64,000 bases of DNA from assembly GCF_900209925.1 (NCBI RefSeq), contig NZ_LT907978.1, positions 863,219 through 927,218 of the forward strand, given 5' to 3'. Under the pieces are notes generated by a model that had not been told where the DNA came from, searched no databases, and was given only the letters and a program-made list of their open reading frames with translations. Positions 3,681 through 59,380 of the stretch are shown here, piece by piece; the first letter of the stretch is position 1, and each line of letters begins with the position of its first letter. The DNA is from Anaerobutyricum hallii (lineage in GTDB: Bacteria; Bacillota; Clostridia; Lachnospirales; Lachnospiraceae). Position numbers and translations under genes: made by a program.

Positions 3681-4895
3681 ATGTTTAAAGTAAATGAGAA
3701 CTATTTAAAACTGCCGGGAAGTTATCTTTTTTCTACAATTGGAAAGAAAGTAGCCGCATACAAAGAGGCAAATCCAGATAAATCTATCATCAGTTTAGGT
3801 ATCGGTGATGTAACACAGCCATTAGCACCAAAGATTATCGAAAGTCTTCATAGTGCGGTAGACGAGATGGGAAAGGCAGAAACTTTTCATGGATACGCTC
3901 CAGATTTAGGATATGAATTTTTAAGAAATGCAATTGCAGATGGTGACTATAAGAGCCATGGCTGCGATATTCATGCAGATGAGATTTTTGTCAGTGATGG
4001 AGCAAAATGTGACTCGGGAAATATTCAGGAAATATTCAGTATAGATAACAAAATTGCAGTATGCGACCCAGTTTATCCAGTTTATGTCGATACGAATGTT
4101 ATGGCAGGAAGAACAGGAACATACGACCCTTCCACAGAAACCTGGAGTGATGTCATCTATATGCCATGCACCGCAGAGAATGATTTTGTACCAGACTTTC
4201 CAAAAGAAGAGCCGGACATTATCTATCTTTGCTTCCCAAATAATCCTACCGGAACAACGATTACAAAAGCACAGCTTCAGGACTGGGTTGATTATGCTAA
4301 TAAGATTGGCGCAGTAATTATTTATGATGCTGCTTACGAGGCATATATCAGCGAAGATGATGTCGCACACAGTATTTATGAATGTGAAGGAGCAAGAACC
4401 TGTGCAATTGAACTTCGAAGCTTTTCAAAGAATGCAGGATTTACAGGAACAAGACTTGGATTTACTGTAGTTCCTAAAGACTTAAAAGCCGGAGATGTTA
4501 CTTTACATTCCTTATGGGCAAGAAGACATGGAACAAAGTACAACGGTGCTCCATACATCATTCAGAGAGCAGGAGAAGCCTGCTACAGTGCAGAAGGAAA
4601 AGCACAGTTAAAAGAGCAGGTTGCTTTCTATATGAACAATGCGAAAATTATCAAAGAAGGCTTAAAAGATGCAGGATACACCGTATTTGGTGGAGTAAAC
4701 GCACCATATATCTGGTTACAGACTCCAGATAAAATGCCATCCTGGGACTTCTTTGACTTCCTGTTAAAGAATGCAAACGTAGTAGGAACACCAGGCTCAG
4801 GATTTGGACCAAGCGGAGAAGGATATTTCCGACTCACAGCATTCGGTTCTCATGAAAATACATTAAAAGCCATCGAAAGAATTAAAGCACTTTAA
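3681..4895 (+). CDS. dapL: LL-diaminopimelate aminotransferase (class I PLP aminotransferase, DapL type)
   Basis: N-terminal [17 protein letters not shown] is typical of DapL. 404 aa. Adjacent to dapF. Confidence 0.8.
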
Positions 4896-4911
4896 GATTA
4901 ATTTGCTGAGC

Positions 4912-5044
4912 AAAAGAAACGAAAACCAGAAATAAAGATAAAATAAAATGTGAAGATAGTCGCGGCGCAGAAAATGCCTGACCGGCATTTTTACTTGCTC
5001 CGACATCACATTTTATTTTATCTTTATTTCTGGTTTTCTGTTTA
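4912..5044. repeat. IR-A palindromic intergenic repeat, copy 1 (core in reverse orientation)
   Basis: The arms AAAACCAGAAATAAAGATAAAATAAAATGTGA and their exact reverse complement flank the core GAAAATGCCTGACCGGCATTTTTACTTGCTCCGACATCACA. Confidence 0.85.
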
Positions 5045-5188
5045 TTGATGCCATATAGAAATTAATATTTTAATCTGGAGAAAAAGGAGCTTGTCAAGAA
5101 GGCTGTGAGAATGGAAATTCTCCAGAAGGCTTTGGCGTTCACTGCTATTTGTTATCAAAACCAGACAGCTGCTGAAATAAAATTCTAT

Positions 5189-5398
5189 GCTGAATTGTAA
5201 AAAAATGTGATAAAGAAAAAAGAATTGTTATACGTATTGTATTTTGTGACTTTGCGCTGTGGAATTTTGACTCTGAAAACTTCGGACTTATTTTTCCGAA
5301 GTTTTCGTTTTTTGAGGCAAAATAAAGCGTTTAGCGCAACGGAACAAAATCAAACGTATAACAATTCTTTTTTCTTTAGAAGACAGACTACAATTCAG
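5189..5398. repeat. IR-C large imperfect palindrome (about 210 bp) with a central terminator-like hairpin, copy A
   Basis: Terminal inverted repeats CTGAATTGTA...TACAATTCAG. Inner arms AGAATTGTTATACGT / ACGTATAACAATTCT. Central hairpin GAAAACTTCGGA-N7-TCCGAAGTTTTC followed by a T-tract. About 80% identical to 24805-25020. Confidence 0.8.
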
Positions 5399-5484
5399 TG
5401 AGAAGATATCCCCTTCTGGAGATTTTCATTCCAAATAAAAACCATAGACTTCTGGGCAATCCCCTTATCCACATCCAAAATTTA

Positions 5485-5662
5485 AATACTAATTTCCATC
5501 TGGAGCCAAAGCACAGAAAAGCAGAAATTTAATAGAGAAGAAAATGTGATGTCGGAGCGAGTAAAAATGCCGGTCAGGCATTTTCTGCGAAGCGACTATC
5601 TTCACATTTTCTTCTCTATTAAATTTCTGCTTTTCGTCTCTTTAATCCATCAAATTAGTATT
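5485..5662. repeat. IR-A palindromic repeat, copy 2 (core in forward orientation), with AAATACTAATTT/AAATTAGTATTT terminal inverted repeats
   Basis: CAGAAAAGCAGAAATTTAATAGAGAAGAAAATGTGA, then the core TGTCGGAGCGAGTAAAAATGCCGGTCAGGCATTTTCTGCGAAGCGAC, then the exact reverse complement of the arm. Confidence 0.85.
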
Positions 5663-6722
5663 TAAACCGTAATGCTTCTTCACTGGTCTGGGAGAGGATT
5701 TTCATCGCTTCTTCCGGATAAGCGCCCATAGCAGTTTCTCCTGTCAGCATTAATGAGGAAGCTCCATCTAAAACGGCCTGAAAGATGTCCGTTACTTCAG
5801 CCCTGGTTGGTACAGGGTTTTCTTCCATGGAGGCGAGCATCTGTGTGACGACCATAAAAGGTTTTTTTGCATGACGGCATGTCGTGGAGATTCTTTTTTG
5901 CACAGCAGGAAGTTTTGGCAGTGGAATAGCATTTCCAAGATCGCCTCGTGCAATTACAATCTCGTCGCAGAAAGGAAGAAGAGAAGGCAAGTGTTCAACA
6001 CCTTCTATGGATTCTATCTTGGCGAAGATGCGAATATAGTCCATATTATCTGCCATCAGTTCTTTTCGGAGTGTGATCAGATCATCTGCGTTTCTTACAA
6101 AAGGAAGCATGACACCGGTAACGTGGTATTTCCGAAGTAGTTTAAGATTTTCCTTGTCGGTTTTTGTAAGAACAGGGAGTGGAACAGTAAGATCTTTGAT
6201 TGCGATACTTTTTCTGGAAGTTAATTCGCCGCCCTTGATTACTTCTGCGCAAAAAATATCTGATTCTAGAGGAGCGGATATTTTTAAAACAATTTTTCCA
6301 TCATTAAGGCGGACTTCCTGCTCTTCATCAAAATAAGAGAAGAGAATTTCCGGACATGGGATAATAAAAAATTCATCTTTGCCATTAAGAATACGGGAAA
6401 AAATATCCGAATTTTCTTTTTTTTCCTGGAAGGACTTTTCTGATATAAGGAAAACGATATCTCCAGAAGAAAGTGATAGAGGAGTATCTAATGTGCCTAT
6501 ACGAAGTTCCGGACCCTGGAGATCAACAAGAAGTTCCGGAATGATATGCATACGTTCGGAAACTTCGTGATACTGCTGCAGCCAGTCTTCGCAGTCATCA
6601 AGATTACTGTGAGAAAGATTGAGCCGCATTCCGGTCATCCCCGCTAAAAACATTGCCTGTATTTTTTCTTTTGAAGCGCAGGCAGGACCGAGTGTTCCGT
6701 ATAAGTGAAGAGAATGTTTCAT
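5655..6722 (-). CDS. pyruvate kinase family protein with A and B domains only, lacking the C-terminal domain
   Basis: RLNLSHS, KIESIEG, ARGDLG, TQML and PTRAEV motifs align to the pyruvate kinase barrel. The product is only 355 aa, against about 470+ aa for a full pyruvate kinase. Confidence 0.6.
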   Translation of the reverse strand: MKHSLHLYGTLGPACASKEKIQAMFLAGMTGMRLNLSHSNLDDCEDWLQQYHEVSERMHIIPELLVDLQGPELRIGTLDTPLSLSSGDIVFLISEKSFQEKKENSDIFSRILNGKDEFFIIPCPEILFSYFDEEQEVRLNDGKIVLKISAPLESDIFCAEVIKGGELTSRKSIAIKDLTVPLPVLTKTDKENLKLLRKYHVTGVMLPFVRNADDLITLRKELMADNMDYIRIFAKIESIEGVEHLPSLLPFCDEIVIARGDLGNAIPLPKLPAVQKRISTTCRHAKKPFMVVTQMLASMEENPVPTRAEVTDIFQAVLDGASSLMLTGETAMGAYPEEAMKILSQTSEEALRFKY

Positions 6723-8192: not shown

Positions 8193-11100
8193 ATGCAGAG
8201 AAAGGTATATATTCTGGAGAATCTTGATTGTGCGAACTGTGCAGCCAAGATTGAAAGAAAGTTAAGCAAGCTGCCGGAGTTAAACGATGTATCAGTTACA
8301 TTTGCAACAAAACAGCTTCGATTTGAAGCAGAAGACCCAGAAGCAGTTTTGCCAAAAATCAGAGAGACAATTCAGTCTATGGAACCAGATGTTGAGGTTG
8401 TAGAAAGAACTCGCGGTAAGCGCAAAACAGCAGAGCATCACCATGAGCACCATGAGCATCATGATCACGAGCATGGTCACGAAGAGAGCTGTGGATGTGG
8501 CCACGAGCATCACCATGACCATCATGATCACGAGCATGATCATGAAGAGAGTTGTGGATGCGGCCACGAGCATCACCATGACCATCATGAGCATCATGAT
8601 CACGAACATGGCCATGAAGACGGTTGTGGATGCGGTCACGAGCATCATCATGAGCATCATGATCACGAGCATGGCCATGAAGAGGGCTGTGGATGTAGCC
8701 ACGAGCATCACCATGACCATCATGATCACGAGCATGGACATGAAGACGGCTGCGGCTGCGGACATGATCATCATCATGAACCATCCAAACCACAGGCGAC
8801 GCGATCACATACACATTTTGAAGTGGAATATCATCATGTAGACGGACATCCGGATCACTGTGATTGCAGTCAGTGTAATTCTTATATAGAATATTGTGAC
8901 GTATGTGGAGAAAGTCTTGCAAAGTGTACTTGCCATATGCCGGATGAGGATTTAGAGAAAAAGGTATATATTTTAGAAGGAATTGATTGTGCGAATTGTG
9001 CGGCTAAGATTGAGGCAAAAATCCGCCAGATGCCGGAAGTAGGATTTGCTTCGGTAGCATTTGCAACAAAGCAGCTTCGTGTTTCAGCAAATAATCAGGC
9101 AGAGTTATTGCCTAAAATGCAGGCTGTTGTAGATTCTATTGAAGACGGCGTGACAATTGTTCCAAGACAGAGAAAGAGACCAACAGGTATTTCTAATACA
9201 AAGATATATATTTTGGAAGGACTTGACTGTGCAAACTGTGCAGCTAAGATTGAAGCAAAGTTAAGAACACTCAATGGTGTAGATGATCTGACAATTACTT
9301 ATGCGACAAAGCAGATGAAGCTTTCTGCAAAGAATCCGGATCAGATGATTCCATTGATTAAAGAAACAATTGATTCTATGGAAGATGGAATTACAATTGT
9401 GCCAAAAGATAATAAAGTAGCAAAATCAGCAGAAAAAGAAGAGAAGAAATTCTCATTTAATAATCCATTAGTAAGTATTGGTATTGGAGCAGTAATATTT
9501 ATTATTGGTGAGGTACTTGAACATATTGGGAATGTACCGGCAATTCCAATGTTTGCTCTATTCTTGATTGCATATTTAGTTCTTGGCGGCAAAGTATTAG
9601 TTACAGCCGGGAAGAATATCATGAAAGGTCAGGTATTTGATGAAAACTTCTTGATGTGTATCGCAACAATTGGTGCGTTCTGTATTCAGGAATTTCCGGA
9701 AGCAGTAGGTGTTATGCTTTTCTATCGTATTGGTGAGTATTTTGAAGAAAAAGCAACGGAGCAGAGTCGTACACAGATTATGGAAGCAGTTGACTTAAGA
9801 CCGGAAGTTGTTAATCTTATTGTTGGAGAAGATATTCGTGTCATTGATGCAGAAGAAGCTAATGTAGGAGATATCCTTTTAGTACGTCCCGGTGACCGTA
9901 TTCCATTAGATGGTGTTATCATTGATGGAGAGAGCCGTATTGATACTTCACCTGTCACCGGTGAACCAGTACCGGTTATGGCAAAAACAGGAGATAATAT
10001 TGTTTCCGGATGTGTCAATACATCAGGACAGTTAAAAATTCGTGTTGAGAAGATTCTTGAGGAATCTATGGTAACAAGAATTCTTGATTCGGTGGAAAAT
10101 GCAGCAGCAAGTAAGCCGAATATTGACAAGTTTATTACTCGTTTTGCAAGAGTGTATACACCGTTTGTTGTATTTTTTGCATTATTTGTAGCAATTGTTC
10201 TTCCATTTATTTTACCTGATTCTCTGAACTGGCATCTTTTTGTAGATAGTGCATACACAGGAACAGTAAATACCATTTATGGAACAAGCGGAACAGCATC
10301 AATTTATACAGCATTGACATTCCTTGTTATCAGTTGCCCTTGTGCATTAGTATTAAGTGTTCCTCTGGCATTCTTTTCAGGAATTGGAGCGGGCTCTAAA
10401 AAAGGTATCCTCTTTAAAGGAGGAATTGCTATTGAAGGGCTTAAAAATGTCAAAGCAATTGTAATGGATAAAACAGGAACGATCACAAAAGGTAACTTTG
10501 TAGTTCAGAAAGCAAATCCGGCAGGAAATGCGATGACTGCAAATGATTTGTTAGCAATCAGTGCAAGTTGTGAATTGTCTTCTACACATCCGATCGGAAA
10601 TAGTATTGTAGATGCAGCAAAAGAAAAGGGACTTTCCATTGAGCGGCCTTCTAAAGTAGAAGAAATCGCAGGACATGGTATACGTGCAGAACTTAGTAAA
10701 GGTGTGGTTCTTTGTGGTAACAGAAAGCTTATGGATGAACAGAATGTTGATCTTAGCTCCTATCAGAAAGAAGACTTTGGCACAGAAGTCCTCGTTGTAT
10801 TAAACGGTAAATTTGTTGGAAACATTGTTATTTCTGATACAGTAAAGGAAGATGCGAAAGAAGCAATCGCAGCGGTAAAGAAGCAGGGAATCATTACTGC
10901 AATGCTTACAGGCGATGCGCAGGAGAGCGCAGATGCTGTTGCAAAAGAAACAGGAATCGACGAAGCACATGCAAAATTGCTTCCACAGGATAAGTTATCC
11001 GAGCTGAAGAAAATCAGAGAAAGTCATGGAGCAGTTATGTTTGTCGGAGATGGTATCAACGATGCACCGGTACTCGCTGGCGCAGATGTTGGTGCGGCAA

Positions 11101-11366
11101 TGGGAAGCGGCGCAGATGCAGCAATTGAAGCAGCAGATGTCGTATTTATGAATTCTGAAATGAAAGCGATTCCGGAAGCAGTCAGCATTGCAAAGATGAC
11201 AAACAGCATTTCATGGCAAAACGTTGTATTTGCACTTGCGATTAAAATTATTGTTATGATCATGGGACTTTTCGGATTTGCAAATATGTGGATCGCAGTA
11301 TTTGCAGATACAGGAGTATCCGTACTCTGCCTTCTGAATTCCATTAGGATTCTTCATAGAAAATAA
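8193..11366 (+). CDS. heavy-metal-translocating P1B-type ATPase (Zn/Cd/Co type) with three HMA-like CANCAAKIE domains and a His-rich repeat insert
   Basis: DKTGT phosphorylation site, CPC motif in TM6, GDGINDAP, a D-T-G motif in TM8, and three N-terminal LDCANCAAKIE domains. Confidence 0.9.
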   Translation: MQRKVYILENLDCANCAAKIERKLSKLPELNDVSVTFATKQLRFEAEDPEAVLPKIRETIQSMEPDVEVVERTRGKRKTAEHHHEHHEHHDHEHGHEESCGCGHEHHHDHHDHEHDHEESCGCGHEHHHDHHEHHDHEHGHEDGCGCGHEHHHEHHDHEHGHEEGCGCSHEHHHDHHDHEHGHEDGCGCGHDHHHEPSKPQATRSHTHFEVEYHHVDGHPDHCDCSQCNSYIEYCDVCGESLAKCTCHMPDEDLEKKVYILEGIDCANCAAKIEAKIRQMPEVGFASVAFATKQLRVSANNQAELLPKMQAVVDSIEDGVTIVPRQRKRPTGISNTKIYILEGLDCANCAAKIEAKLRTLNGVDDLTITYATKQMKLSAKNPDQMIPLIKETIDSMEDGITIVPKDNKVAKSAEKEEKKFSFNNPLVSIGIGAVIFIIGEVLEHIGNVPAIPMFALFLIAYLVLGGKVLVTAGKNIMKGQVFDENFLMCIATIGAFCIQEFPEAVGVMLFYRIGEYFEEKATEQSRTQIMEAVDLRPEVVNLIVGEDIRVIDAEEANVGDILLVRPGDRIPLDGVIIDGESRIDTSPVTGEPVPVMAKTGDNIVSGCVNTSGQLKIRVEKILEESMVTRILDSVENAAASKPNIDKFITRFARVYTPFVVFFALFVAIVLPFILPDSLNWHLFVDSAYTGTVNTIYGTSGTASIYTALTFLVISCPCALVLSVPLAFFSGIGAGSKKGILFKGGIAIEGLKNVKAIVMDKTGTITKGNFVVQKANPAGNAMTANDLLAISASCELSSTHPIGNSIVDAAKEKGLSIERPSKVEEIAGHGIRAELSKGVVLCGNRKLMDEQNVDLSSYQKEDFGTEVLVVLNGKFVGNIVISDTVKEDAKEAIAAVKKQGIITAMLTGDAQESADAVAKETGIDEAHAKLLPQDKLSELKKIRESHGAVMFVGDGINDAPVLAGADVGAAMGSGADAAIEAADVVFMNSEMKAIPEAVSIAKMTNSISWQNVVFALAIKIIVMIMGLFGFANMWIAVFADTGVSVLCLLNSIRILHRK
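8440..8800 (+). repeat. tandem 63-72 nt coding repeats (5 units) encoding a His-rich metal-binding segment
   Basis: Units of about 21-24 aa (HEHHxDHxxHEHGHEExCGCG) repeated five times within the ATPase ORF. Confidence 0.85.
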
Positions 11367-11388
11367 TAGTTTGTAGATTTCGTATAGA

Positions 11389-11506
11389 CGAAAAAAGAAA
11401 TACTGCCCTATCCCATCTGCTCTGTAGTCGCTGTGTTTAAAATGCTCGTCCGCATCTTAAACACGCTCCGAAGCCGCATCTGGGATAGGGCAGTATTTCT
11501 TTTTTC
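11389..11506. repeat. IR-B palindromic terminator-like repeat, copy 1
   Basis: GAAAAAAGAAATACTGCCCTATCCCATCTG, then an inner hairpin GTGTTTAAAATGC/GCATCTTAAACAC, then TGGGATAGGGCAGTATTTCTTTTTTC. Starts 23 bp after the ATPase stop codon. Confidence 0.85.
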
Positions 11507-11670
11507 TGACTATCTAAATCCACAATCGGTGAGAATGAGGGGATTGTCCAGAAGGCTATGGTTTTCATCCAAATAAAGGCTCCAGACAAGGAATATTTTC
11601 TTATGGAGAAATAGTTATTTGATTAAAAATCATAATCTTCCCAAAAATCCCCTTCTCTTTCCAACACAAA

Positions 11671-11846
11671 TCACTAATTTCCATCTGGAACCAAAGAGCA
11701 GAAAACCAGAAATTTAATATAGAAGAAAATGTGATGTCGGAGCGAGTAAAAATGCCGGTCAGGCATTTTCTGCGAAGCGACTATCTTCACATTTTCTTCT
11801 ATATTAAATTTCTGGTTTTCGTTTCTTTAGTCTCTCAAATTAGTAG
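11671..11846. repeat. IR-A palindromic repeat, copy 3
   Basis: Arms AAAACCAGAAATTTAATATAGAAGAAAATGTGA and their exact reverse complement, with the same core as the 5513 copy. Confidence 0.85.
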
Positions 11847-12119
11847 TTAATCTGCTCTGTATTCTTCTGGAATATCTTCTTCATCCCATACGATAACATT
11901 AAAGTTTTTCTGGCATCCCATCTTGATTCCAAAGCCAAGTACATTATCTGTAGAACGGTCTAAAGCAACTTTGATAAAATCAACAGCTTCTTTATGTTTG
12001 GTTCCTACAACATATACATTAAAGTTTTTAGAATATTCTCCATTTAAAACGGTGAATTCTCCTTTTTTTAAATGTTCATCTCGTTCTGGTGCTAACTTTC
12101 TCTTTTCAAGTATTGTCAT
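11847..12119 (-). CDS. hypothetical protein (90 aa)
   Basis: Strong RBS TAGGAGGAGATAT 6 nt upstream of the start. No recognisable domain. Confidence 0.55.
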   Translation of the reverse strand: MTILEKRKLAPERDEHLKKGEFTVLNGEYSKNFNVYVVGTKHKEAVDFIKVALDRSTDNVLGFGIKMGCQKNFNVIVWDEEDIPEEYRAD

Positions 12120-23363: not shown

Positions 23364-24365
23364 ATGATGAGAAGATATCTTGTAATATTAATGATGCCAT
23401 GTTTCGTGATGCTGTTTGGTATCTGTTGTCTGGCAGGCTGTGAGGGAAGTAAACATCATTTGAAAAAAGTACGTTTAAATGAAGTGGCTCATTCTATTTT
23501 TTATGCCCCACAATATGTGGCGATAGAAAAAGGTTATTTTGAGAAAGAGGGCATTAAGCTAGAACTCACAACCGGGTTTGGCGCAGATAAAACGGCGACA
23601 GCAGTCATCAGTGGAGATGCAGATATTGCTTTTATGGGACCGGAGGCAACGATTTATCAATTCAATCAGGGGAATGCAGATTATCTTATCAATTTTGCCC
23701 AGCTTACTCAAAGAGCAGGCAATTTTGTTGTAAGCCGGAACAAAGAAGAAGATTTTCAATGGGAGAACTTAAAAGGAAAGAAAGTTATTGGCGGAAGGCC
23801 AGGCGGCATGCCGGAAATGGTATTTGAGTATGTTTTGAAAAAACATGGGATGAATCCACAAAAAGACATTGATCTTGTACAAAATATTGATTTTGCGAAT
23901 ACATCTGGAGCATTTGTTTCAGGAAAAGCAGATTATACTATTGAATTTGAACCGTCAGCAACATTGATTGAAGAACAGGGGGCAGGTTATGTAGTTGCCT
24001 CTGTAGGAAAAGAGAGCGGATATGTGCCATATACAGCTTACAGCGTAAAGAAAAGCTATCTTGAATCACATAAAGAATTACTGGAAGCATTTACCCGGGC
24101 AATCGAAAAAGGACAGCAATATGTCAATACACATACACCGAAAGAAGTTGCAAAGGTAATTGCACCGCAATTTAAAGATACAGATAGAAAAACAATAGAA
24201 AAAATAGTAAAAAGATATGCTGAACAGGATAGTTATAAAGAAAATACAAAATTTGAAAAAGAAAGTTTTGTATTAATTCAGGATATCTTAGAAGAAGCAG
24301 GAGAACTAGAAAAACGCGTAGAATATGAAACATTAGTTACAACAGAATTTTCAGAAAAATACTAA
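23364..24365 (+). CDS. ABC-transporter substrate-binding lipoprotein (NMT1/SsuA/TauA-like), orphan
   Basis: Lipoprotein signal peptide with an LAGC lipobox and an NMT1-like fold. No permease or ATPase gene is adjacent. Confidence 0.7.
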   Translation: MMRRYLVILMMPCFVMLFGICCLAGCEGSKHHLKKVRLNEVAHSIFYAPQYVAIEKGYFEKEGIKLELTTGFGADKTATAVISGDADIAFMGPEATIYQFNQGNADYLINFAQLTQRAGNFVVSRNKEEDFQWENLKGKKVIGGRPGGMPEMVFEYVLKKHGMNPQKDIDLVQNIDFANTSGAFVSGKADYTIEFEPSATLIEEQGAGYVVASVGKESGYVPYTAYSVKKSYLESHKELLEAFTRAIEKGQQYVNTHTPKEVAKVIAPQFKDTDRKTIEKIVKRYAEQDSYKENTKFEKESFVLIQDILEEAGELEKRVEYETLVTTEFSEKY

Positions 24366-24537
24366 TTTGAGGGACTAAAGAAACGAAAACCAGAAATTTG
24401 ATAGAAAAGAAAATGTGAAGATAGTCGCTTCGTAGAAAATGCCTGACCGGCATTTTTACTTGCTCCGACATCACATGTTCTTTTCTATCAAATTTCTGGT
24501 TTTCTGTTCGTTGGCTCCAGATGGAAATTAGTATTTT
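24361..24537. repeat. IR-A palindromic repeat, copy 4 (reverse orientation)
   Basis: AAAACCAGAAATTTGATAGAAAAGAAAATGTGA..GAAAATGCCTGACCGGCATTTTT..arm reverse complement..TTGGCTCCAGATGGAAATTAGTATTTT. Confidence 0.85.
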
Positions 24538-24804
24538 AATTTTGAATGGAGAGGGGATTGTCCAGAAGTCTATGATTTTCATTGGGATTAAAATCTCCAG
24601 ATGGGGATATCTTCTTACAGAATTGTAAGGATATTATAGTGAAAGAAATCGGATCAACCAGAAGAATTTGGCTTTCACTGCTATTTTCTTATGGTGAAAC
24701 AGTTCTTTGATTAAAAATCATAATTTTCTGGAGAATCCCCTTCTCTTTCCAACAGAAATTACTAGTTTGCTATTTGTTGTTAAACTATCAGCCGCCGGAA
24801 TAAA

Positions 24805-25020
24805 TTTTTATGCTGAATTGTAAGAAAACTATGGTAAAGAAAAAAAGAATTGTTATAAGTTAGATTTTGTGACTTTGCGCTATGGAATTCTGACCATAGG
24901 AACTTGGGACTCGTTTTTCCCAAGTTCCTGTTTTTCTGGGCAGAATGGAATGCTTAGCGCAACGGAATAAAATCTAACTTATAGCAATTCTTTTTTCTTA
25001 GAAGACCGCCTGCAATTCAG
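24805..25020. repeat. IR-C large palindrome, copy B
   Basis: Same architecture as 5189-5398. The central hairpin GGAACTTGGGA-N7-TCCCAAGTTCC carries compensatory changes relative to copy A. Confidence 0.8.
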
Positions 25021-32597: not shown

Positions 32598-34817
32598 ATG
32601 AGTATTTACGATACTTTAAATAAAGAACAAAGAGAGGCGGTCTTCTGTACAGAAGGCCCCCTTTTGATGCTTGCGGGAGCAGGATCGGGAAAGACCAGAT
32701 CACTAACACACCGTATTGCATATTTAATAGAAGAAAAAGGAATTGCACCATGGAACATTCTGGCAATCACTTTCACAAACAAGGCGGCGCAGGAGATGAG
32801 AGAGCGTGTAGATTCTCTGGTAGGATACGGTTCAGAAGATATTTGGATCAGCACCTTTCATGCTACTTGCAGCCGTATTTTGCGAAGACATATTGATTTG
32901 TTAGGATATGACAGAAATTTTACGATTTATGATGCAAGCGATCAAAAGTCTCTTATGAAAGAAGTTTTAAAAGAGATGAAAATCGATACGAAGCAGTTTC
33001 CAGAACGCTCGGTTATGTCAGAAATTTCTTCTGCCAAGAATGAATATAAATCTCCGCTCGATTATCGTAATGAGTACGGAAGTAATTATCGTAATCAGAG
33101 AATTGCGGATATTTATGAATGTTATCAGAAGCGTCTAAAGGAGAATAATGCACTTGATTTTGACGATCTTCTTGTAAAAATGGTAGATTTATTTCAGGCA
33201 AATCCAGAAGTTTTAGAGCATTATCAGGATCGTTTTCGGTATATTATGGTTGACGAATATCAGGATACGAATACAGTACAGTTCCTATTGGTAAGTCTTC
33301 TTGCAAAGAAATATTGTAATCTTTGTGTTGTCGGAGATGATGATCAGTCTATTTATAAATTCCGGGGAGCCAATATTTATAATATTTTAAATTTTGAGAA
33401 AGTATTTCCGGATGCACAGGTAATCCGTTTAGAACAGAATTATCGTTCCACGCAGAATATTCTTAATGCTGCAAACGGAGTTATTGCAAATAATAAAGGA
33501 AGAAAAGAAAAGAAATTGTGGACCGAAAACCAGAAGGGAGAATTGGTTCACTTTAAGCAGTATGATACGGAATATGAAGAGGCAGAAGGAGTTGTATCCA
33601 CTATTAATTTCCTCTCCATGCGAGGGGTAGAATATAAGGATATGGCAATTTTATATAGAACGAATGCACAGTCTCGCATATTTGAAGAAAAGTTAAAACA
33701 AAGAAATATTCCATATGCGATCGTACGAGGAATTAGTTTTTACGATAGAAAAGAAATTAAAGATTTGATGAGCTATCTGAAAGTGGTAGACAGCGGAATG
33801 GATGATCTCTCCGTAAAAAGAATTATCAATGTTCCGAAAAGAGGAATTGGTCAGACAACAATTAACCGTCTGCAGGAGTTTGCGATCATGAATCAGATGA
33901 GTTTCCTTGATGCAGTATTTAATGCAGATGAGATTCCGGAAGTTGCAAGGGCACTTGCAAAGCTTCATAAATTTGCAGATATGATAGAAAATTTTCGAAA
34001 TTACAGTATGGAACATGAAATCAGTGAATTGTTAGAACATATTCTTGATGTAACACAATATAGAGCAGAATTAGAAGCAGAAGGAACAGATGAATCCATC
34101 AGCCGCTTAGAAGATATAGAGGAACTTTTTAACGATATTGCATATTACGAAGAAGAGGAAGAAAATCCGAATCTTCGAGATTTCCTTGCAGAAAAAGATA
34201 TGTATACACTAAATGCGGGAATTGATAACTTAGAAGAAGAGGATAATAAGGTGTTATTGATGACACTTCATAATGCAAAAGGTCTGGAATTTAATAATGT
34301 TTTCCTTGGAGGCATGGAAGAAGGCGTGTTTCCAGGTTATGGTGCTATGATGTCAGGCGATGAATCAGAAATAGAAGAAGAACGCCGGCTTTGCTATGTT
34401 GGAATCACAAGAGCAAAGGAAAGACTGTTCTTAAGTTCAGCCAAGAGAAGAATGTTACGTGGTCAGACACAATATAACAGGCATTCCCGCTTTATCGATG
34501 AAATCCCTTCCGCTTATCTCGATATAAAGAAGAATAATTCCACACATCAGGAAGTGAAAAAGACAGATCGCCCGGTGAAGTATCAATATGGAGCGGGAGC
34601 AGGAAAACCGTATAATCTGAGTGATTTTAAAATAAAACCAGCCGGAGAATTAAATTATCAGGTGGGAGACCGCGTGAAGCATATCAAGTTTGGCGTGGGA
34701 ACCGTACAGGAAATCACAAAAGGTGGAAGAGATTATGAAGTCTCCGTAGACTTTGACAGAGTAGGACGAAAAAAAATGTTCGCATCTTTCGCAAAATTAA
34801 AAAAAGTTACTATTTGA
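32598..34817 (+). CDS. pcrA: ATP-dependent DNA helicase PcrA (UvrD family)
   Basis: GAGSGKT Walker A, DEYQDTN, and UvrD helicase motifs; 739 aa. Confidence 0.9.
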   Translation: MSIYDTLNKEQREAVFCTEGPLLMLAGAGSGKTRSLTHRIAYLIEEKGIAPWNILAITFTNKAAQEMRERVDSLVGYGSEDIWISTFHATCSRILRRHIDLLGYDRNFTIYDASDQKSLMKEVLKEMKIDTKQFPERSVMSEISSAKNEYKSPLDYRNEYGSNYRNQRIADIYECYQKRLKENNALDFDDLLVKMVDLFQANPEVLEHYQDRFRYIMVDEYQDTNTVQFLLVSLLAKKYCNLCVVGDDDQSIYKFRGANIYNILNFEKVFPDAQVIRLEQNYRSTQNILNAANGVIANNKGRKEKKLWTENQKGELVHFKQYDTEYEEAEGVVSTINFLSMRGVEYKDMAILYRTNAQSRIFEEKLKQRNIPYAIVRGISFYDRKEIKDLMSYLKVVDSGMDDLSVKRIINVPKRGIGQTTINRLQEFAIMNQMSFLDAVFNADEIPEVARALAKLHKFADMIENFRNYSMEHEISELLEHILDVTQYRAELEAEGTDESISRLEDIEELFNDIAYYEEEEENPNLRDFLAEKDMYTLNAGIDNLEEEDNKVLLMTLHNAKGLEFNNVFLGGMEEGVFPGYGAMMSGDESEIEEERRLCYVGITRAKERLFLSSAKRRMLRGQTQYNRHSRFIDEIPSAYLDIKKNNSTHQEVKKTDRPVKYQYGAGAGKPYNLSDFKIKPAGELNYQVGDRVKHIKFGVGTVQEITKGGRDYEVSVDFDRVGRKKMFASFAKLKKVTI

Positions 34818-34837
34818 TTCATTTAGAAGAAAACAGA

Positions 34838-34955
34838 CGAAAAAAGAAATAATACCATATCCCATCTGCTCTGTAGTCGCTGTGTTTAAGATGCTCATCC
34901 GCATCTTAAACACGCTCCGAAGCCGCATCTGGGATATGGTATTATTTCTTTTTTC
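34838..34955. repeat. IR-B palindromic terminator-like repeat, copy 2
   Basis: GAAAAAAGAAATAATACCATATCCCATCTG..GTGTTTAAGATGC/GCATCTTAAACAC..GGGATATGGTATTATTTCTTTTTTC. The inner hairpin is perfect through an A-to-G compensatory change. Confidence 0.85.
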
Positions 34956-35150
34956 TGTGTTTTGGCTCCAGAAGGAATGAATGCAATAGTCTTTGGAGAG
35001 AGATGGGGAAGAAATCAGAAGACTACTGCTTGCTCGGAAGATGTATCATCCAGAAGATTATTTTCTCGCTCTTAACGAGTAGTAAAGAGAAAGGAGATTG
35101 TCATTTTACAAAAAAGTACAGAAATCGCCTTTATATTTATCGTACATTCT

Positions 35151-35180: not shown

Positions 35181-35418
35181 GAGATGTGCGTTATATATAA
35201 CGTATGGCATATGTTTTGAGAAAAAACGATATATTGCGACAATATAATGATAAAATTATTATGTACAGTGATAGGTTTCGGTATCATCTTATCATCAGTG
35301 AAACTTGAAAAAAGGTTCAGCATAGTAGAAATAGCATCGAAATAAGCCACAACCTCCTGACCTCTCCCCCCTTTCTCTCCCCAAAAACTATTTCATTCAT
35401 TCCATGTGGTACCAACAC

Positions 35419-35542
35419 ACAGAAAATAAAAATAATAGACCATTGCAAATATAATGTGAGAGCAAGTAAAAATGCCGAACAGGCATTTTCTACGCAGTGA
35501 TATCTTTATATTTGCAATGGTCTATTATTTTTATTTTCGTCT
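35419..35542. repeat. IR-A palindromic repeat, copy 5 (divergent arms)
   Basis: Arms GAAAATAAAAATAATAGACCATTGCAAATATAA and their exact reverse complement, with the core GTAAAAATGCCGAACAGGCATTTTC. Confidence 0.8.
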
Positions 35543-35640
35543 GTTTTCCCCTAATGAATCAAATAGTAAAAAAATATTGTTGGTAAAGCAGGCTTTATCG
35601 TGATATACTAAAGAAAAGATTAGTAAGGAGGACTTGCATA

Positions 35641-36265: not shown

Positions 36266-36340
36266 CGGGGTGTGGCTCAGCTTGGCTAGAGCGCTTGATT
36301 TGGGATCAAGAGGCCGCAGGTTCGAATCCTGTCACCCCGA
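36266..36340 (+). tRNA. tRNA-Pro(TGG)
   Basis: Cloverleaf with a C1:G72 pair, anticodon loop TTTGGGA, and T-loop TTCGAAT. No encoded CCA. Confidence 0.85.
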
Positions 36341-36345
36341 TATCT

Positions 36346-36416
36346 GCGGGTGTAGTTCAATGGTAGAACACTAGCCTTCCAAGCTAGATACGTGGGTTCG
36401 ATTCCCATCACCCGCT
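36346..36416 (+). tRNA. tRNA-Gly(TCC)
   Basis: Acceptor GCGGGTG/CACCCGC. Anticodon loop CTTCCAA. Confidence 0.85.
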
Positions 36417-36465
36417 TCTGCGAGAGCAGTATTTACAGTTATATAATGTAACTACTATTTTATGC

Positions 36466-36539
<74 letters not shown>

Positions 36540-36561
36540 TTTGTCAGGTTGTCCTGGCTAT

Positions 36562-36636
36562 GGTGGGTGTGGCGCAGTTGGTTAGCGCGCCAGATTGTGG
36601 CTCTGGAGGCCGAGGGTTCGAATCCCTCTACCCACC
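36562..36636 (+). tRNA. tRNA-His(GTG) with encoded G-1
   Basis: An extra 5' G pairs with C73. Anticodon loop TTGTGGC. Confidence 0.85.
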
Positions 36637-36642
36637 TTATAA

Positions 36643-36714
36643 TGGGCTATCGCCAAGCGGTAAGGCACAGGACTTTGACTCCTGCATTCGCTGGTTCGAA
36701 TCCAGCTAGTCCAG
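36643..36714 (+). tRNA. tRNA-Gln(TTG)
   Basis: Anticodon loop CTTTGAC. T-loop TTCGAAT. Confidence 0.8.
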
Positions 36715-36756
36715 TTGGACCAGTGATTCGATATGCTGGCTCAGTAATATTTATAT

Positions 36757-36829
36757 GGGATATTAGCTCAGTTGGTAGAGCACTTGACTTTTAATCAAGT
36801 TGTCCGGGGTTCGAATCCCCGATGTCTCA
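36757..36829 (+). tRNA. tRNA-Lys(TTT)
   Basis: TAGCTCAGTTGGTAGAGC D-arm. Anticodon loop CTTTTAA. Confidence 0.8.
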
Positions 36830-36880
36830 TTTGAGAATCGTCTTATAGATGATTTTTGATTTAAAACATTATAGTTATAC

Positions 36881-36955
36881 CGGGGTGTGGCTCAGCTTGG
36901 CTAGAGCGCTTGATTTGGGATCAAGAGGCCGCAGGTTCGAATCCTGTCACCCCGA
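36881..36955 (+). tRNA. tRNA-Pro(TGG), second identical copy
   Basis: Identical in sequence to 36266-36340. Confidence 0.85.
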
Positions 36956-36960
36956 TATCT

Positions 36961-37031
36961 GCGGGTGTAGTTCAATGGTAGAACACTAGCCTTCCAAGCT
37001 AGATACGTGGGTTCGATTCCCATCACCCGCT
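36961..37031 (+). tRNA. tRNA-Gly(TCC), second identical copy
   Basis: Identical in sequence to 36346-36416. Confidence 0.85.
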
Positions 37032-37075
37032 TTCTTTTTTCGCCTACGAAAAAAGATAATTGAATTACAGGATAT

Positions 37076-37155
37076 GCGGATATGGCGGAACTGGCAGACG
37101 CGCTAGACTTAGGATCTAGTTCTTCGGAGTGCAGGTTCGATTCCTGTTATCCGCA
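37076..37155 (+). tRNA. tRNA-Leu(TAG)
   Basis: Anticodon loop CTTAGGA. Extended variable arm TTCTTCGGAGT. T-loop TTCGATT. Confidence 0.75.
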
Positions 37156-37595: not shown

Positions 37596-38744
37596 ATGAG
37601 TGAAGCAGTGAGCAGAAACACAAAGCGCATTTATAAGTGGGACAATCTGAAGTGTTTTTTAATTGTTATGGTTGTTATAGGACATTTTGTGAATCAGTAT
37701 GCACCAATATCGAATACAATGAAAAGCCTTTCTCTTTTTATTTATTCCTTCCATATGCCGCTTTTTATTTTTTTGTCAGGATTATTACAGAAGAAGTGGG
37801 GTGCAAGGCATCCGTTTCGATGGGATAAGCCTATATATTATATTATGATTGGTTACACGTTGAAGTTTTGCATTTATGGAATTAAGTTATTATTTCATCA
37901 GGAAGCGGTATTTCAGTGGTTTGAAGATACAGGAATTCCATGGTATATGTTTGCCATGGCTGCTTTTATGCTTATGACATATTTGCTGCGTGAATTACCG
38001 CTGTGGTTTGTTATGCCGATCAGTATTATGATTGCATGTCTTGCTGGATATGATACGAATATTGGAAGCTTTCTTTATCTTTCAAGGATTATTGTATTTT
38101 TTCCTTTTTATTATGTGGGATATCATTTGGATATAAAGAAAGTGCAGGAGGTTTTAGATAAACTGTGGATTAAGTGTCTTTCTGCTATTTTTCTTACGGA
38201 TATGATTTTATATACGTTAGCGAGAATCGAAGATAAGTATTCTTATATACGTCTTTTTACGGGAAGGAATGCGTATGAATTTATTAATGTAGAAGATTGT
38301 GGGGCAGTGCATCGTCTGGTATTCTATATGATTGCCTTTCTTATGGGAATTGCGATTATAAGCCTTGTGCCAAATCGTAAGATTCCGGTTATAGGAACAG
38401 TAGGTAAAAGAACGTTGCAGATTTATTTCTGGCATCGATTAGTGTTATATATACTTACATTTTCTGGTATGACAGATGAGCTTATTAAAAAGGTTCCATC
38501 TGGCTGGATATGGATTTATCTTGCGATTGCGGTGGTGCTTCCGTTTGTATTATCATTAAAAATTTTTGGCGTACCACTTACGTTTCTTAAAAACAGTGAG
38601 CATATCATGCTGACTGGAATAAACAGAGTTGCTGTGAATCTGTATAAATGGAAAGAGAGTACCCTTACGGTACTCCCTGTGTTAGAATTCGTTACAATTG
38701 TATTAATGCTGATTTATTATGGTGAGGATGTCGGCATCCTGTAG
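37596..38744 (+). CDS. acyltransferase family 3 membrane protein (OatA-like O-acyltransferase)
   Basis: About 10 transmembrane helices and an N-terminal WDNLKCFLIVMVVIGHF motif. RBS AGAGG before the ATG at 37596. Confidence 0.75.
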   Translation: MSEAVSRNTKRIYKWDNLKCFLIVMVVIGHFVNQYAPISNTMKSLSLFIYSFHMPLFIFLSGLLQKKWGARHPFRWDKPIYYIMIGYTLKFCIYGIKLLFHQEAVFQWFEDTGIPWYMFAMAAFMLMTYLLRELPLWFVMPISIMIACLAGYDTNIGSFLYLSRIIVFFPFYYVGYHLDIKKVQEVLDKLWIKCLSAIFLTDMILYTLARIEDKYSYIRLFTGRNAYEFINVEDCGAVHRLVFYMIAFLMGIAIISLVPNRKIPVIGTVGKRTLQIYFWHRLVLYILTFSGMTDELIKKVPSGWIWIYLAIAVVLPFVLSLKIFGVPLTFLKNSEHIMLTGINRVAVNLYKWKESTLTVLPVLEFVTIVLMLIYYGEDVGIL

Positions 38745-38963
38745 CACCTTTAACAGTTTTTGACAGAATGGAACTCCGAGCTGCGCGCACATTCTGTCGT
38801 AATGAAGAAATTTAATCTGTAAACGATCTGGATGTTCTGTTAAAATATCATATAGAGCATCCAGATTATTTCCAAAATATTCTGGAACATTCAGTTCAGT
38901 TTTTATGTTCGCATAAAAATCTTCTTTCTTTTTTATGGATAATCCATCGATTGTGATTGTCAT
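38703..38963 (-). CDS. barstar-family RNase inhibitor (immunity protein)
   Basis: 86 aa with a barstar-like pattern (DALYDILTEHP..). The start overlaps the RNase stop by 4 nt (ATGA). Confidence 0.75.
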   Translation of the reverse strand: MTITIDGLSIKKKEDFYANIKTELNVPEYFGNNLDALYDILTEHPDRLQIKFLHYDRMCAQLGVPFCQKLLKVLQDADILTIINQH

Positions 38964-39550
38964 TGTATATCATCCCCATAAAGTAAAGTAAAAGTTTCAT
39001 AGTGATCATCTGTATAATAAATCTGACCGTCATCTGAGTAGATAATTCGTTTAGCTCCGCGGCTTTTTGCATTCAAAGTGTCGATATCGCACTCGTGGTA
39101 GGTTCTTCCAGAGACAACTGGTAATCGTTGTTCATAATTGCCGAAATAATCTCCACCGATACATTTGCCTGGAGCATAAGGTTCTAAGCTTCCGCCAGAC
39201 CAGCCCAGTTTTTTTGCTTCTTTTTTTGTAATGAAATTCGTCGGAAGCTGTCTGTACTGGATAAGGTAGTTTGTCACATCTTCTTTAGATGTGTAGCTGC
39301 CGTTTTTGTTAAGATAATCATCCGTTTCATCGATTTGTTTCTTTTTAGAAGAAGCAGTGCCTGCATTGTCCGACTGTGAGGTGTCCGAAGTGTTTTTATC
39401 GGAATTATTAGTAATTGTTGAAGTGTATGTTCTGGTTTCTGTAGTGCTTTCTACATTAAAAGAGGAGTTACATCCGCTGATCGGAAGAACGACAAGTAAT
39501 AATGTAGAAAGGATGGATAGAAAATACCATAATTTCTTTTTGAAATGCAT
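38960..39550 (-). CDS. secreted barnase-family guanyl-specific ribonuclease, lipoprotein
   Basis: C-terminal KCIGGDYFGNYEQRLPVVSGRTYHECDIDT...RIIYSDDGQIYYTDDHYETFTLL aligns with the barnase catalytic domain. Signal peptide with an ISGC lipobox. RBS GGGAGG. Confidence 0.8.
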   Translation of the reverse strand: MHFKKKLWYFLSILSTLLLVVLPISGCNSSFNVESTTETRTYTSTITNNSDKNTSDTSQSDNAGTASSKKKQIDETDDYLNKNGSYTSKEDVTNYLIQYRQLPTNFITKKEAKKLGWSGGSLEPYAPGKCIGGDYFGNYEQRLPVVSGRTYHECDIDTLNAKSRGAKRIIYSDDGQIYYTDDHYETFTLLYGDDIQ

Positions 39551-39884
39551 TAAAATTCCTCCCTGCATTGTGATGATGTACTCTCGGAGTCTTTCTTATA
39601 CTTGAGTTTATGGCTGATTTTCCGCCAGTTGCACCCGAATTTCATCAACGTACGCACCGCGTACGCCTCAAAAATTTGGATACAACTGACAAAAAAACTT
39701 CTCACAAAATCAAGCACAAAAAGATTCCGAGAGTACATTGTGTAATTTTAAATTTATATTCCTTCTGAAATTAGTATAACAAAAAGGAAAGAGGCAGTAA
39801 AGAAGCTGTAGAAAAATTTGTTTACGCAAATTTTCGCTTCCCTACTGCCTTTTTAGCAGAATATAAAAAAATGATAGAGTACGG

Positions 39885-46113: not shown

Positions 46114-46656
46114 ATGCCAGAATTAAAAGGAACAAAAACAGAACAGAATTTAATGACAGCTTTTGCAGGAGAATCTCAGGCAAGAAACAAGTATTCTTAT
46201 TTTGCAAGTAAGGCAAAAAAAGAAGGATATGTTCAGATTGCAAATATTTTTGAAGAAACAGCTAATAATGAGAAAGAACATGCAAAGATGTGGTTTAAAC
46301 TCCTTGAAGGAGGAGCAATCCGCTCTACGATCGAGAATCTTCAGGCAGCAGCAGAAGGTGAGAACTATGAGTGGACAGATATGTATGCAACTTTTGCAAA
46401 AGAAGCAAGAGAAGAAGGTTTTGATGATATTGCGGAGAAGTTCGAAGGCGTTGGCGCCATTGAAAAGGAACATGAAGCAAGATATTTAAAACTTCTTGAT
46501 AATGTACAGAAAGAAATCGTTTTCTCCAGAGATGGCGATACGATTTGGCAGTGTGCAAACTGTGGACATATCTGTGTTGGAAAGAAAGCACCAGATGTAT
46601 GTCCGGTATGTGATCATCCACAGTCTTATTTCCAGATTAAAGCAGAGAATTTCTAG
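46114..46656 (+). CDS. rbr: rubrerythrin
   Basis: Ferritin-like diiron ExxH motifs plus a C-terminal rubredoxin CxxC...CxxC motif. Confidence 0.9.
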
Positions 46657-46668
46657 ATTTTATATAGA

Positions 46669-46740
46669 CGAAAAAAGAAACCATGCCCTATCCCATCTGC
46701 GACTAAAGAGCAGATGGGATAGGGCATGGTTTCTTTTTTT
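46669..46740. repeat. IR-B palindromic terminator-like repeat, copy 3 (short form without the inner hairpin)
   Basis: GAAAAAAGAAACCATGCCCTATCCCATCTGC-loop-GCAGATGGGATAGGGCATGGTTTCTTTTTTT. Starts 13 bp after the rbr stop codon. Confidence 0.85.
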
Positions 46741-46832
46741 CTGACCATCTTAAATCCACAGATCTGGAAATTTTCATTTTAATGAACAGCATAGACTTCT
46801 GGGCAATCCCATTATTACCCAAAAAAAATTTA

Positions 46833-47009: not shown

Positions 47010-47108
47010 AAAAAAAGAAAGGAAAAGTACTTGACAAAAATATTTGTGTCGTATATAATAGCCAACTGTAAAGCAAAACTACTTTACATGACATGAGGTG
47101 AGAGACTA

Positions 47109-59353: not shown

Positions 59354-59380
59354 TAATTTCCGGTTTTAGATTGGAAAGAA

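Follow-up and report, generated by a model that had tools for sequence, protein, structure and literature searches.

The inverted repeat at positions 5484-5663 of a 64,000-nucleotide stretch of the Anaerobutyricum hallii chromosome (contig NZ_LT907978.1, positions 863,219 to 927,218, hereafter 'the window') is one copy of an intergenic element, termed IR-A, that raises a simple question: how can the arms of a repeated palindrome differ from copy to copy while remaining complementary to one another within each? Comparison of many copies demonstrates that the pairing of the hairpin is actively maintained. The explanation favoured here, and considered to have about an even chance of being correct, is that IR-A elements are terminator-like hairpin cassettes at the 3' ends of transcripts. 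These would have a conserved apical motif and a stem constrained only to pair, and would spread and decay in a manner similar to repetitive extragenic palindromes (REPs) and the bacterial interspersed mosaic elements (BIMEs) built from them, or to miniature inverted-repeat transposable elements (MITEs).

All six copies reported in a preliminary description of the window are present, at a density of about one per 10 kb. Allowing one mismatch, the 26-nt core is matched five times in the window, against 0.00 expected from shuffled sequences, and the terminal sequence AAATACTAATTT is found 12 times at the same tolerance where 1.6 occurrences would be expected. The core and outer ends previously ascribed to all copies are shared by five; the copy at 35419-35542 is a diverged subtype, with a core beginning AATGTGAGAGCAAG and outer ends CTATTTCATTCATT/AATGAATCAAATAG instead of AAATACTAATTT, and is recovered with an E value of 5e-38 by a hidden Markov model (HMM) built from the copies. 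With the '+' orientation defined as the core reading GTGATGTCGGAGC on the plus strand, the copies are as follows.

4895-5073, minus strand: IR-A copy 1, arms 4921-4953/5006-5038
5484-5663, plus strand: IR-A copy 2, the focal element
11668-11849, plus strand: IR-A copy 3, arms within 11690-11734/11787-11831
24357-24539, minus strand: IR-A copy 4, arms within 24377-24418/24471-24512, one arm mismatch
35400-35567, plus strand: IR-A copy 5, the diverged 'type 2', arms 35422-35454/35506-35538
46829-47010, plus strand: IR-A copy 6, arms within 46852-46896/46949-46993

The focal copy is divided into the following parts.

5484-5495, plus strand: outer left terminal 12-mer AAATACTAATTT, pairing with 5652-5663
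5496-5515, plus strand: asymmetric outer region CCATCTGGAGCCAAAGCACA, with a conserved CCATCTGGAG motif inside and partial pairing with 5636-5651
5516-5549, plus strand: left inner arm, 34 nt, purine-rich, with a variable segment at roughly 5531-5541
5550-5601, plus strand: core, asymmetric, 52 nt
5552-5558 and 5592-5598, plus strand: conserved core 7-mers TCGGAGC and GCGACTA, respectively
5564-5571/5577-5584, plus strand: apical stem AAAATGCC/GGCATTTT, with the loop GGTCA at 5572-5576
5602-5635, plus strand: right inner arm, 34 nt, pyrimidine-rich, the exact reverse complement of 5516-5549
5652-5663, plus strand: outer right terminal 12-mer AAATTAGTATTT, holding the stop codon 5655-5657 (TTA on the plus strand)

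The termini AAATACTAATTT...AAATTAGTATTT form the terminal inverted repeats of an element of approximately 180 bp, and these also covary, with ACTAATTT/AAATTAGT in some copies corresponding to CCTGATTT/AAATCAGG in others. The outer region (alignment columns 33-54) pairs poorly in all copies, and the apical part carries GGCAUUUUU. The folding energy of copy 2 is -86.5 kcal/mol for RNA (z -12.6) and -56.4 kcal/mol for single-stranded DNA (z -13.3). Because the gene that it abuts (5655-6722) is on the minus strand, its mRNA-sense strand is opposite to the core '+' strand. By inspection only, the core is unlike hammerhead and hairpin-ribozyme, K-turn, sarcin-ricin and PyrR/CsrA-like motifs. When the window was compared with Rfam, only tRNAs passed the gathering score and IR-A matched no family; at E values of up to 10, it matched only generic long-hairpin models of plant miRNA precursors, far below their thresholds.

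Exact complementarity of the arms had been proposed for every copy. It is found over the 33-34 nt inner arms of three (4921-4953/5006-5038, 5516-5549/5602-5635 and 35422-35454/35506-35538), while the other three are 90-91% complementary over 42-45 nt. These lower values result from a conserved bulge (ACAGAAAA vs TTTTCGT) that lies outside the 33-bp stem; in addition, the copy at 24361-24537 has one real mismatch (GAACATG vs CATTTTC), which is absent from other strains.

For the analysis of variation, the same regions were retrieved from approximately 40 other strains or assemblies through look-ups of the proteins encoded in the window. The apical-stem pattern was also used to scan metagenomes, giving at least 120 human gut contigs, and species-representative genomes, in which 9 of 11 loci were true copies, the records being labelled Anaerobutyricum, Anaerostipes, Catenibacillus and 'Clostridia' metagenome-assembled genomes (MAGs). 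The HMM matched 237 times in 1.38 Mb of retrieved loci. From all loci, 125 distinct full-length copies were extracted among the matches listed; these contain orthologues from several strains, and collapse to 69 independent loci. About nine of the 125 are chimeric, being either real recombinants or metagenome assembly artefacts.

Complementarity is retained across this larger set. The 125 copies have 74 distinct 32-nt arm sequences, from inner arms of 32-33 bp, and pair perfectly in 63 cases and with no more than two defects in 111, thereby bearing out the arm covariation that the preliminary description had proposed to quantify. When the left arm of one copy is paired with the right arm of another, the mean is 9.5 defects and just 1.35% of pairings are perfect. 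An explicit structure was applied to 39 distinct type-1 copies, in which 98.4% of the cells in a 34-bp helix are paired; 20 of the 34 pairs show changes on both sides, and there is no pair in which just one side varies. The covariation of these copies is 0.165, a value reached in 0 of 500 shuffles, for which the figure is 0.062, and every other measure of structure likewise exceeds all 500 shuffles. Sliding the partner strand reduces the proportion of paired cells from 94.7% to 41-53%. An RNAalifold alignment of 83 copies, representing all subtypes, has up to four types of pair per position.

Type-1 copies with identical 47-nt cores have arms that differ at an average of 3.25 paired positions, and two-sided changes outnumber one-sided changes by approximately 5:1, in a set that had been preselected for no more than two arm mismatches. 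Orthologous alleles of close strains are distinguished by two compensated double substitutions, one in copy 2 (TTTAATAGAG/CTCTATTAAA vs TTTGATAGAG/CTCTATCAAA) and one in copy 1 (AAAGATAAA/TTTATCTTT vs AAATATAAA/TTTATATTT); the same sets of alleles contain about six single uncompensated changes. The excess of compensated changes, together with these alleles, upholds the earlier suggestion that the pattern is not that of a neutrally decaying MITE.

The description of the arms as hypervariable was overstated. Within a subtype, variation is mostly confined to a segment of 10-12 bp in the stem, where the majority base is present in 30-90% of copies, the remainder of the arm being 80-99% conserved. 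Hypermutability of the arms was rejected, as orthologous alleles give no visible excess of variation in the arms over their flanks, albeit in a small sample. Type-1 core positions outside the search pattern are at least 90% conserved, but 21 core positions were set beforehand by that pattern, such that the conservation of the core is partly ascertainment. The contrast between arms and core is attributable to old paralogues with a constrained core, in addition to this ascertainment. The idea that copying restores one arm from its partner, which had been put forward as an alternative to selection, fits these data poorly: the core and the outer region (CCATCTGGAGCC vs GAGGGACT) are stably asymmetric, single changes persist uncompensated, and some chimeric copies have arms from different subfamilies. 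Short-range correction templated by the hairpin may nonetheless operate.

The position of IR-A relative to genes is highly non-random. At 44 of the 69 independent loci, an open reading frame (ORF) of 90 aa or more runs into the right end of the element, in the core '+' orientation; at 5 of 69, one runs into the left end. Within the terminal TAACTACTAATTT, which provides stop codons in all three frames, the stop codon takes one of two sharply defined offsets. Relative to the strand reading TAGTCGC...GCTCCGA, a gene end lies upstream of IR-A in 62 cases against 3, and the next downstream gene is convergent in 29 of 43. The preliminary description had placed the copies near the 3' ends of genes; four are in fact closer than this, abutting or containing a stop codon, whereas copies 5 and 6 abut none. 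Copy 1 begins directly past the stop codon (4893-4895) of the plus-strand gene 3681-4895, the terminal 12-mer of copy 4 encloses that of the plus-strand gene 23364-24365, and the right end of copy 3 contains that of the minus-strand gene 11847-12119 (at 11847-11849). Copy 2 contains the stop codon of the minus-strand gene 5655-6722, which encodes 355 aa with a pyruvate-kinase-family (Pfam PK) domain. As the stops 5655-5657 and 24363-24365 are inside the terminal 12-mer, two unrelated proteins end in K-Y-stop. Copies 1 and 2 are 600 bp apart and in opposite orientations, each directed toward its own gene, which implies that the bias tracks the gene and not the chromosome strand; an orientation that depends on which way the adjacent gene runs is what a role at the level of the transcript would predict. 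Copy 6 is followed by a promoter-like site, TTGACA-N17-TATAAT.

The apical motif is not restricted to IR-A. On the mRNA-sense strand its tip reads TAGTCGC-N33-GCTCCGA, and a second family, IR-C, has the identical two 7-mers at the identical 33-nt spacing, with different arms and a different apical stem; the IR-C element at 11366-11530 matches the IR-A HMM on the opposite strand with an E value of 3e-12. In a third family, TAGTCGC and GCTCCGA surround a hairpin of 41-43 nt (GGTTTGAAT...ATCCAAACC), the stem of which has compensatory variants (for instance at L044:2606, L049:4362, L051:3720, L108:2688 and L001:2754 of the retrieved loci). The apical stems covary both within and between the families. 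The orientation bias extends to IR-C (gene end upstream in 39 cases against 6) and to the third family (5 against 1). The three appear to constitute a small superfamily whose members lie where transcription units end, in Anaerobutyricum and, judging from MAG labels only, in related Lachnospiraceae. The sister elements and adjoining modules in the window are as follows.

11366-11530, plus strand: IR-C, TAGTCGC-N33-GCTCCGA, starting approximately 20 nt past the stop codon of the plus-strand gene 8193-11366
34835-34957, plus strand: IR-C copy, after the plus-strand gene 32598-34817
46650-46760, strand not assigned: IR-C derivative without the core, a perfect 30-bp stem (46671-46739) with a 9-nt loop, then a T run
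5400-5484, 11535-11601, 24538-24615 and 46763-46815: module X, approximately 55-85 bp, adjoining the left end of IR-A
5140-5400 (arms 5211-5235/5354-5378) and 24768-25020 (arms 24841-24882/24955-24996): IR-B palindromes

A weaker relative of IR-C, with similar arms and a different core, is found at 59374-59486. Module X, which contains GGGGATTGYCCAGAAG, adjoins the left, non-gene end of IR-A in four of the six window copies and at 31 of 68 independent loci. It is this module, and not the large palindrome at 5211-5378, that is the shared neighbour of the four copies previously described as lying downstream of an IR-B element. The centre of IR-B is a canonical intrinsic terminator, for example at 5274-5307, followed by TTTTTT on the plus strand, while its outer ends bear a terminal motif of the ACTAATTTG type, as in IR-A. 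The hexamer CCAGAA/TTCTGG is present in all module types.

These features can be brought together in a model in which IR-A, by beginning at or supplying the stop codon of the upstream gene, would be transcribed as the 3' end of that gene. Its A-rich 5' arm and U-rich 3' arm would then form a helix of approximately 33 bp, with an A tract and a U-rich tail on either side, which could act as a terminator, as a barrier to 3'-exonucleases, or as both. Capping this stem would be 5'-UAGUCGC-(hairpin)-GCUCCGA-3', probably a site of recognition by a protein or a nucleus for folding. Since the stem would need only to pair, its sequence could drift, with both sides changing together. Complementarity would be kept chiefly by selection on the helix, which is the main candidate, probably with help from events at the level of the DNA, for example templated correction or template switching once the hairpin is extruded. 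Copies exchange sequence by conversion and are lost through deletions that span the hairpin, while some agent would be responsible for a modular spread resembling that of MITEs or BIMEs.

A location of activity at the 3' end of the transcript is most likely. A makes up 57% of the 5' arm of the stem and T 55% of the 3' arm, and T accounts for 62-64% of the 15 nt at the stem base whichever strand is read. At copies 1 and 4, IR-A lies between the stop codon and the region's only canonical terminator, inside IR-B, from which it follows that IR-A would be transcribed. Type-3 IR-A elements and IR-C have G+C-rich stems, then runs such as TTTCTTTTTTT.

Several observations weigh against the terminator-like model. 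A scan for consensus terminators does not call IR-A; it does call the centre of IR-B (5274-5307) downstream of copy 1. The IR-A stem, with a G+C content of 24% and an A-U-rich base, is poorly suited to intrinsic termination. Arm mismatches in the 125 copies (17 of G.T type, 20 of A.C type and 35 of transversion type) have no strand-specific wobble bias, and the comparison of 20 with 17 gives no excess of G.U on the mRNA-sense strand, which speaks against the tolerance expected of a classical RNA helix. Helix 2 of the 39 type-1 copies also contains very few G.U pairs, contrary to what is usual where selection acts on an RNA helix. Some strains lack the inner hairpin behind the 355-aa gene at 5655-6722, such that it is dispensable there, and two of the six window copies are without an abutting gene end.

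The earlier proposal of selection on a hairpin, in the form of either RNA or a cruciform, was correct in that pairing is maintained, but the evidence on RNA as opposed to DNA points both ways. RNA is favoured by the gene-dependent orientation, by a start that coincides with the stop codon, by the asymmetry of A and U and by apical nucleotides that stay conserved after insertion. On the side of DNA, some alleles have lost the interior of the hairpin through deletions with short direct repeats at their ends (ATTAAA for copy 2 of L158, CA for copy 3), and such hairpin-spanning deletions imply that a DNA hairpin forms in vivo. Events of this kind probably contribute both to the perfection of the arms and to the loss of copies.

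One rival explanation, possible although rather unlikely, is that IR-A is a selfish, non-autonomous element of the MITE, REPIN (REP doublet forming a hairpin) or PATE (palindrome-associated transposable element) type, which a transposase encoded at another site would mobilise in the form of a single-stranded DNA hairpin. The apical 7-mers would then be sites of recognition or cleavage by the enzyme, the long arms would merely extrude the tip, complementarity would be restored in the single-stranded intermediate, and the position and orientation of copies would reflect the choice of target. The density noted above, whether expressed as about one element per 10 kb or as the 237 HMM matches, is consistent with this, as are terminal inverted 12-mers common to several module types and an element end that supplies stops in all three frames. 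The absence of a wobble bias would suit a process acting on DNA, compensatory changes are a feature of REPIN hairpins (PMC3116915), and an IS200/IS605 TnpA is present in the pan-genome of the species. Module-level indels have junctions at a shared 12-mer or at TTAG/CTAG, and one 183-bp indel of IR-C, which is ambiguous as to insertion or deletion, is flanked by direct copies of the 12-mer. Against this, no precise empty site for IR-A was found among approximately 40 strain alleles of the six loci, which differ only through internal deletions, conversions and module-level indels, and thus provide no insertion to set against a clean empty site. Conversion from other copies produces mismatched arms in L024 and L030. 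A search of approximately 1.7 Mb, a limited sample rather than whole genomes, found no autonomous element bounded by IR-A ends; every occurrence of the terminal sequences there belongs to a full or internally deleted IR-A copy. Many IR-A copies have TTAA or TA at either side, but as this is itself palindromic, such a putative target duplication is inseparable from the inverted repeat; in several copies it is missing. The reported absence of a transposase from the window was borne out by Pfam tables, which cover it to approximately 62.7 kb, and these likewise contain no gene for a REP-associated tyrosine transposase (RAYT) in the 64-kb window. Orientation follows the adjacent gene, and not the replication strand as single-strand transposition would. 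Finally, copies with identical cores differ at approximately 10% of arm positions, which implies conservation of the core after insertion, something for which a purely selfish element has no need.

Insertion sequences have entered the intergenic region of copy 6 in two other strains, at sites orthologous to about 46740-46830 of the window: an IS200/IS605 element (Y1 TnpA and TnpB; L173:3139-4763) is inserted in module X after TTTTCAT, and an element encoding DDE_Tnp_1 (L168:3314-4525) in the left part of IR-C. Both were rejected as mobilising agents, because their ends are unrelated to those of IR-A.

A purely structural role in DNA appears improbable. IR-A would in this case form a cruciform or be bound by a chromosomal protein, much as BIMEs have been proposed to interact with gyrase, IHF and Pol I. 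It would have no function in RNA, and the arms would be kept identical by gene conversion between them or by template switching at the quasipalindrome. Perfect stems without tolerance of wobble pairs, the deletions between short direct repeats expected of a DNA hairpin forming in vivo and the stability of the single-stranded DNA fold (-56 kcal/mol, z -13) all accord with this, and template switching is documented as creating and maintaining hairpins (PMC8794818). Such a site provides no reason for the gene-relative orientation or the start at the stop codon, however, and leaves unexplained the preserved asymmetry between A-rich and T-rich strands of the arms. A small hydrophobic peptide resembling a type I toxin, encoded opposite the neighbouring gene, is very improbable indeed. 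The hairpin would here sequester the ribosome-binding site of a frame consisting of GGAG, 8 nt, ATG and then 33-36 codons (MPxRHFLR(S/R)D...), with read-through from the neighbour as the antisense partner. The GGAG, which resembles a Shine-Dalgarno sequence, and the ATG are conserved, 119 of the 125 copies keep frame 0 open for 25 codons or more, and of the five sites that vary in codons 7-10, four are third positions. Yet the arm being pyrimidine-rich, the other frames are largely open too (99/125 and 51/125), the 3-base periodicity of variation is not significant (p 0.08 for type 1, 0.66 for type 2) and the synonymous share barely exceeds that of other frames. A 1-nt indel between types 1 and 2 shifts the frame, the equivalent IR-C ORF, read by inspection, has 15 codons and is not hydrophobic, and it is pairing rather than codons that drives changes in the arms. 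The small ORF at 5552-5663 on the plus strand (MPxRHFLRSDYLH followed by a hydrophobic tail, with equivalents in other copies) was accordingly rejected, as no coding signal was found.

A further reading assigns the oriented apical module, carried on a stem of approximately 33 bp with free sequence that begins at the stop codon, to dedicated Lachnospiraceae machinery, for which it would be the recognition element: either a protein that processes, terminates or stabilises the 3' ends of mRNA or a hairpin-specific enzyme that installs the cassettes at gene ends, oriented by transcription. The 33-nt spacing of the module is fixed in two families, and the module itself is common to three with unrelated stems; the proposal is tentative and, on balance, unlikely.

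Among known systems, IR-A has most in common with REPs, BIMEs and REPINs in being an extragenic palindrome of high copy number at gene 3' ends or between convergent genes, in forming mosaics with other motifs, and in having, as has been proposed for these repeats, potential 3' untranslated region roles in stability and termination. It is subject to compensatory hairpin changes, and in the long hairpins of REPINs such changes on both sides are common (PMC3116915). The anatomy differs, however. A REP unit is an imperfect palindrome of 20-40 nt with a 5' GTAG, arranged as an inverted doublet, and a REPIN comprises two inverted REPs of 20-40 nt, with conserved 16-mers at its ends and a variable spacer in the middle. 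IR-A lacks an inverted pair of short conserved units, having instead a single asymmetric, conserved 52-nt core at the tip and variable arms beneath, in an A+T-rich element of approximately 180 nt; at the position compared with the 5' GTAG of REPs, IR-A has ATAGTCGC and IR-C has GTAGTCGC. Further differences are the strict orientation to the upstream gene, the overlap with the stop codon and the lack of a RAYT gene in the 64-kb window.

With its terminal inverted repeats and a size in the range of 50-500 bp, IR-A also has the form of a MITE. Repeats of this type include the Correia (nemis) elements of Neisseria, the enterobacterial repetitive intergenic consensus (ERIC) sequences, BOX and RUP of the pneumococcus and bcr1 of Bacillus, which measure 100-200 bp and are bounded by terminal inverted repeats. 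Their transcripts, when joined to those of neighbouring genes, form long hairpins; the elements may supply stop codons and terminators and, in the case of BOX, are modular. Either their target-site duplications are clear or their parent insertion sequences are known, and their internal sequence is conserved throughout. By contrast, IR-A has a variable stem with compensated changes and an apical motif common to three otherwise different families, while a target-site duplication is not provable and no parent element was found in the 1.7 Mb.

The resemblance to a bidirectional intrinsic terminator lies in the A tract, stem and U-rich tract on both strands, in a location where transcription units end, in many cases flanked by convergent genes, and in the freedom of the stem sequence provided that pairing holds. 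IR-A departs from such terminators in its 33-bp stem, with 24% G+C, being interrupted by a conserved 52-nt apical module, in constituting a repeated family instead of unique sites, and in giving no call in a simple scan. Integron attC sites are likewise imperfect palindromes (57-141 bp) found 3' of ORFs in a fixed orientation, with structure conserved over sequence and conserved bulged bases. Conservation in attC, however, is concentrated in sites at the outer ends (RYYYAAC/GTTRRRY), and attC sites flank promoterless cassettes that form one-directional arrays beside intI; the ends of IR-A are AAATACTAATTT, its neighbours are housekeeping genes in both directions, and there is no integrase in the window.

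As a mechanism, template switching at a quasipalindrome, or conversion between arms, needs only one event to make a complementary pair out of a one-sided change, and is thereby able to keep hairpins perfect (PMC8794818, PMC5453318). An event of this kind is not directly observed here, the data instead exhibiting conversion between copies and the persistence of uncompensated single changes. Compensatory change in repeat hairpins, known from REPINs, and the upkeep of hairpins by template switching have thus already been described. What sets IR-A apart from known kinds is the combination of a conserved asymmetric tip on a stem of free sequence, a pair of 7-mers common to three families and a strict orientation to the stop codon. 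A literature search under Anaerobutyricum, Eubacterium hallii and Lachnospiraceae found, within the library covered, no paper describing such a bacterial intergenic repeat, and a 2026 preprint on coevolutionary mining does not cover the element. Collections of plasmids and phages gave no match to IR-A. Separately, one contig of the IMG/VR viral collection (IMGVR_UViG_3300045988_107356; L157, 45.8 kb) carries a copy, with a single IR-A-type core match at 11300-11325.

Anaerobutyricum hallii and A. soehngenii are abundant producers of butyrate and propionate in the human gut, and the proteins flanking IR-A elements are found in thousands of metagenome assemblies. If the cassettes do end or stabilise many mRNAs, they would be relevant to the annotation of transcription units and to the engineering of expression in a clade for which there are few genetic tools. 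The family represents a clean natural data set on the upkeep of long perfect hairpins, with dozens of arm variants and compensated changes that can be seen between strains, and could be used to separate selection on RNA from templated correction at the level of DNA, while the conserved apical motif offers a handle for finding a binding partner. Were the suggestion of dedicated machinery to be true, IR-A would amount to a new class of structured 3'-end element, beyond another REP-like repeat.

Many metagenome contigs terminate exactly at IR-A, which helps to account for the fragmented assemblies of this clade. Four contigs (L014, L015, L016 and L017) end inside copy 1, no more than approximately 100 nt from the stop codon of the aminotransferase gene.

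Elsewhere in the window, nine tRNA genes are clustered at 36266-37155, including two duplicated pairs with identical scores. On the minus strand at about 38703-39568, a barstar-like gene (PF01337) is adjacent to one resembling a secreted ribonuclease (PF00545), both assigned by Pfam. A small integrative element, with Rep_trans, a Tn916-type Xis and an integrase, is found beside the DUF4250 gene at L164:1236-6013, where the strain represented by the window has aconitase genes.

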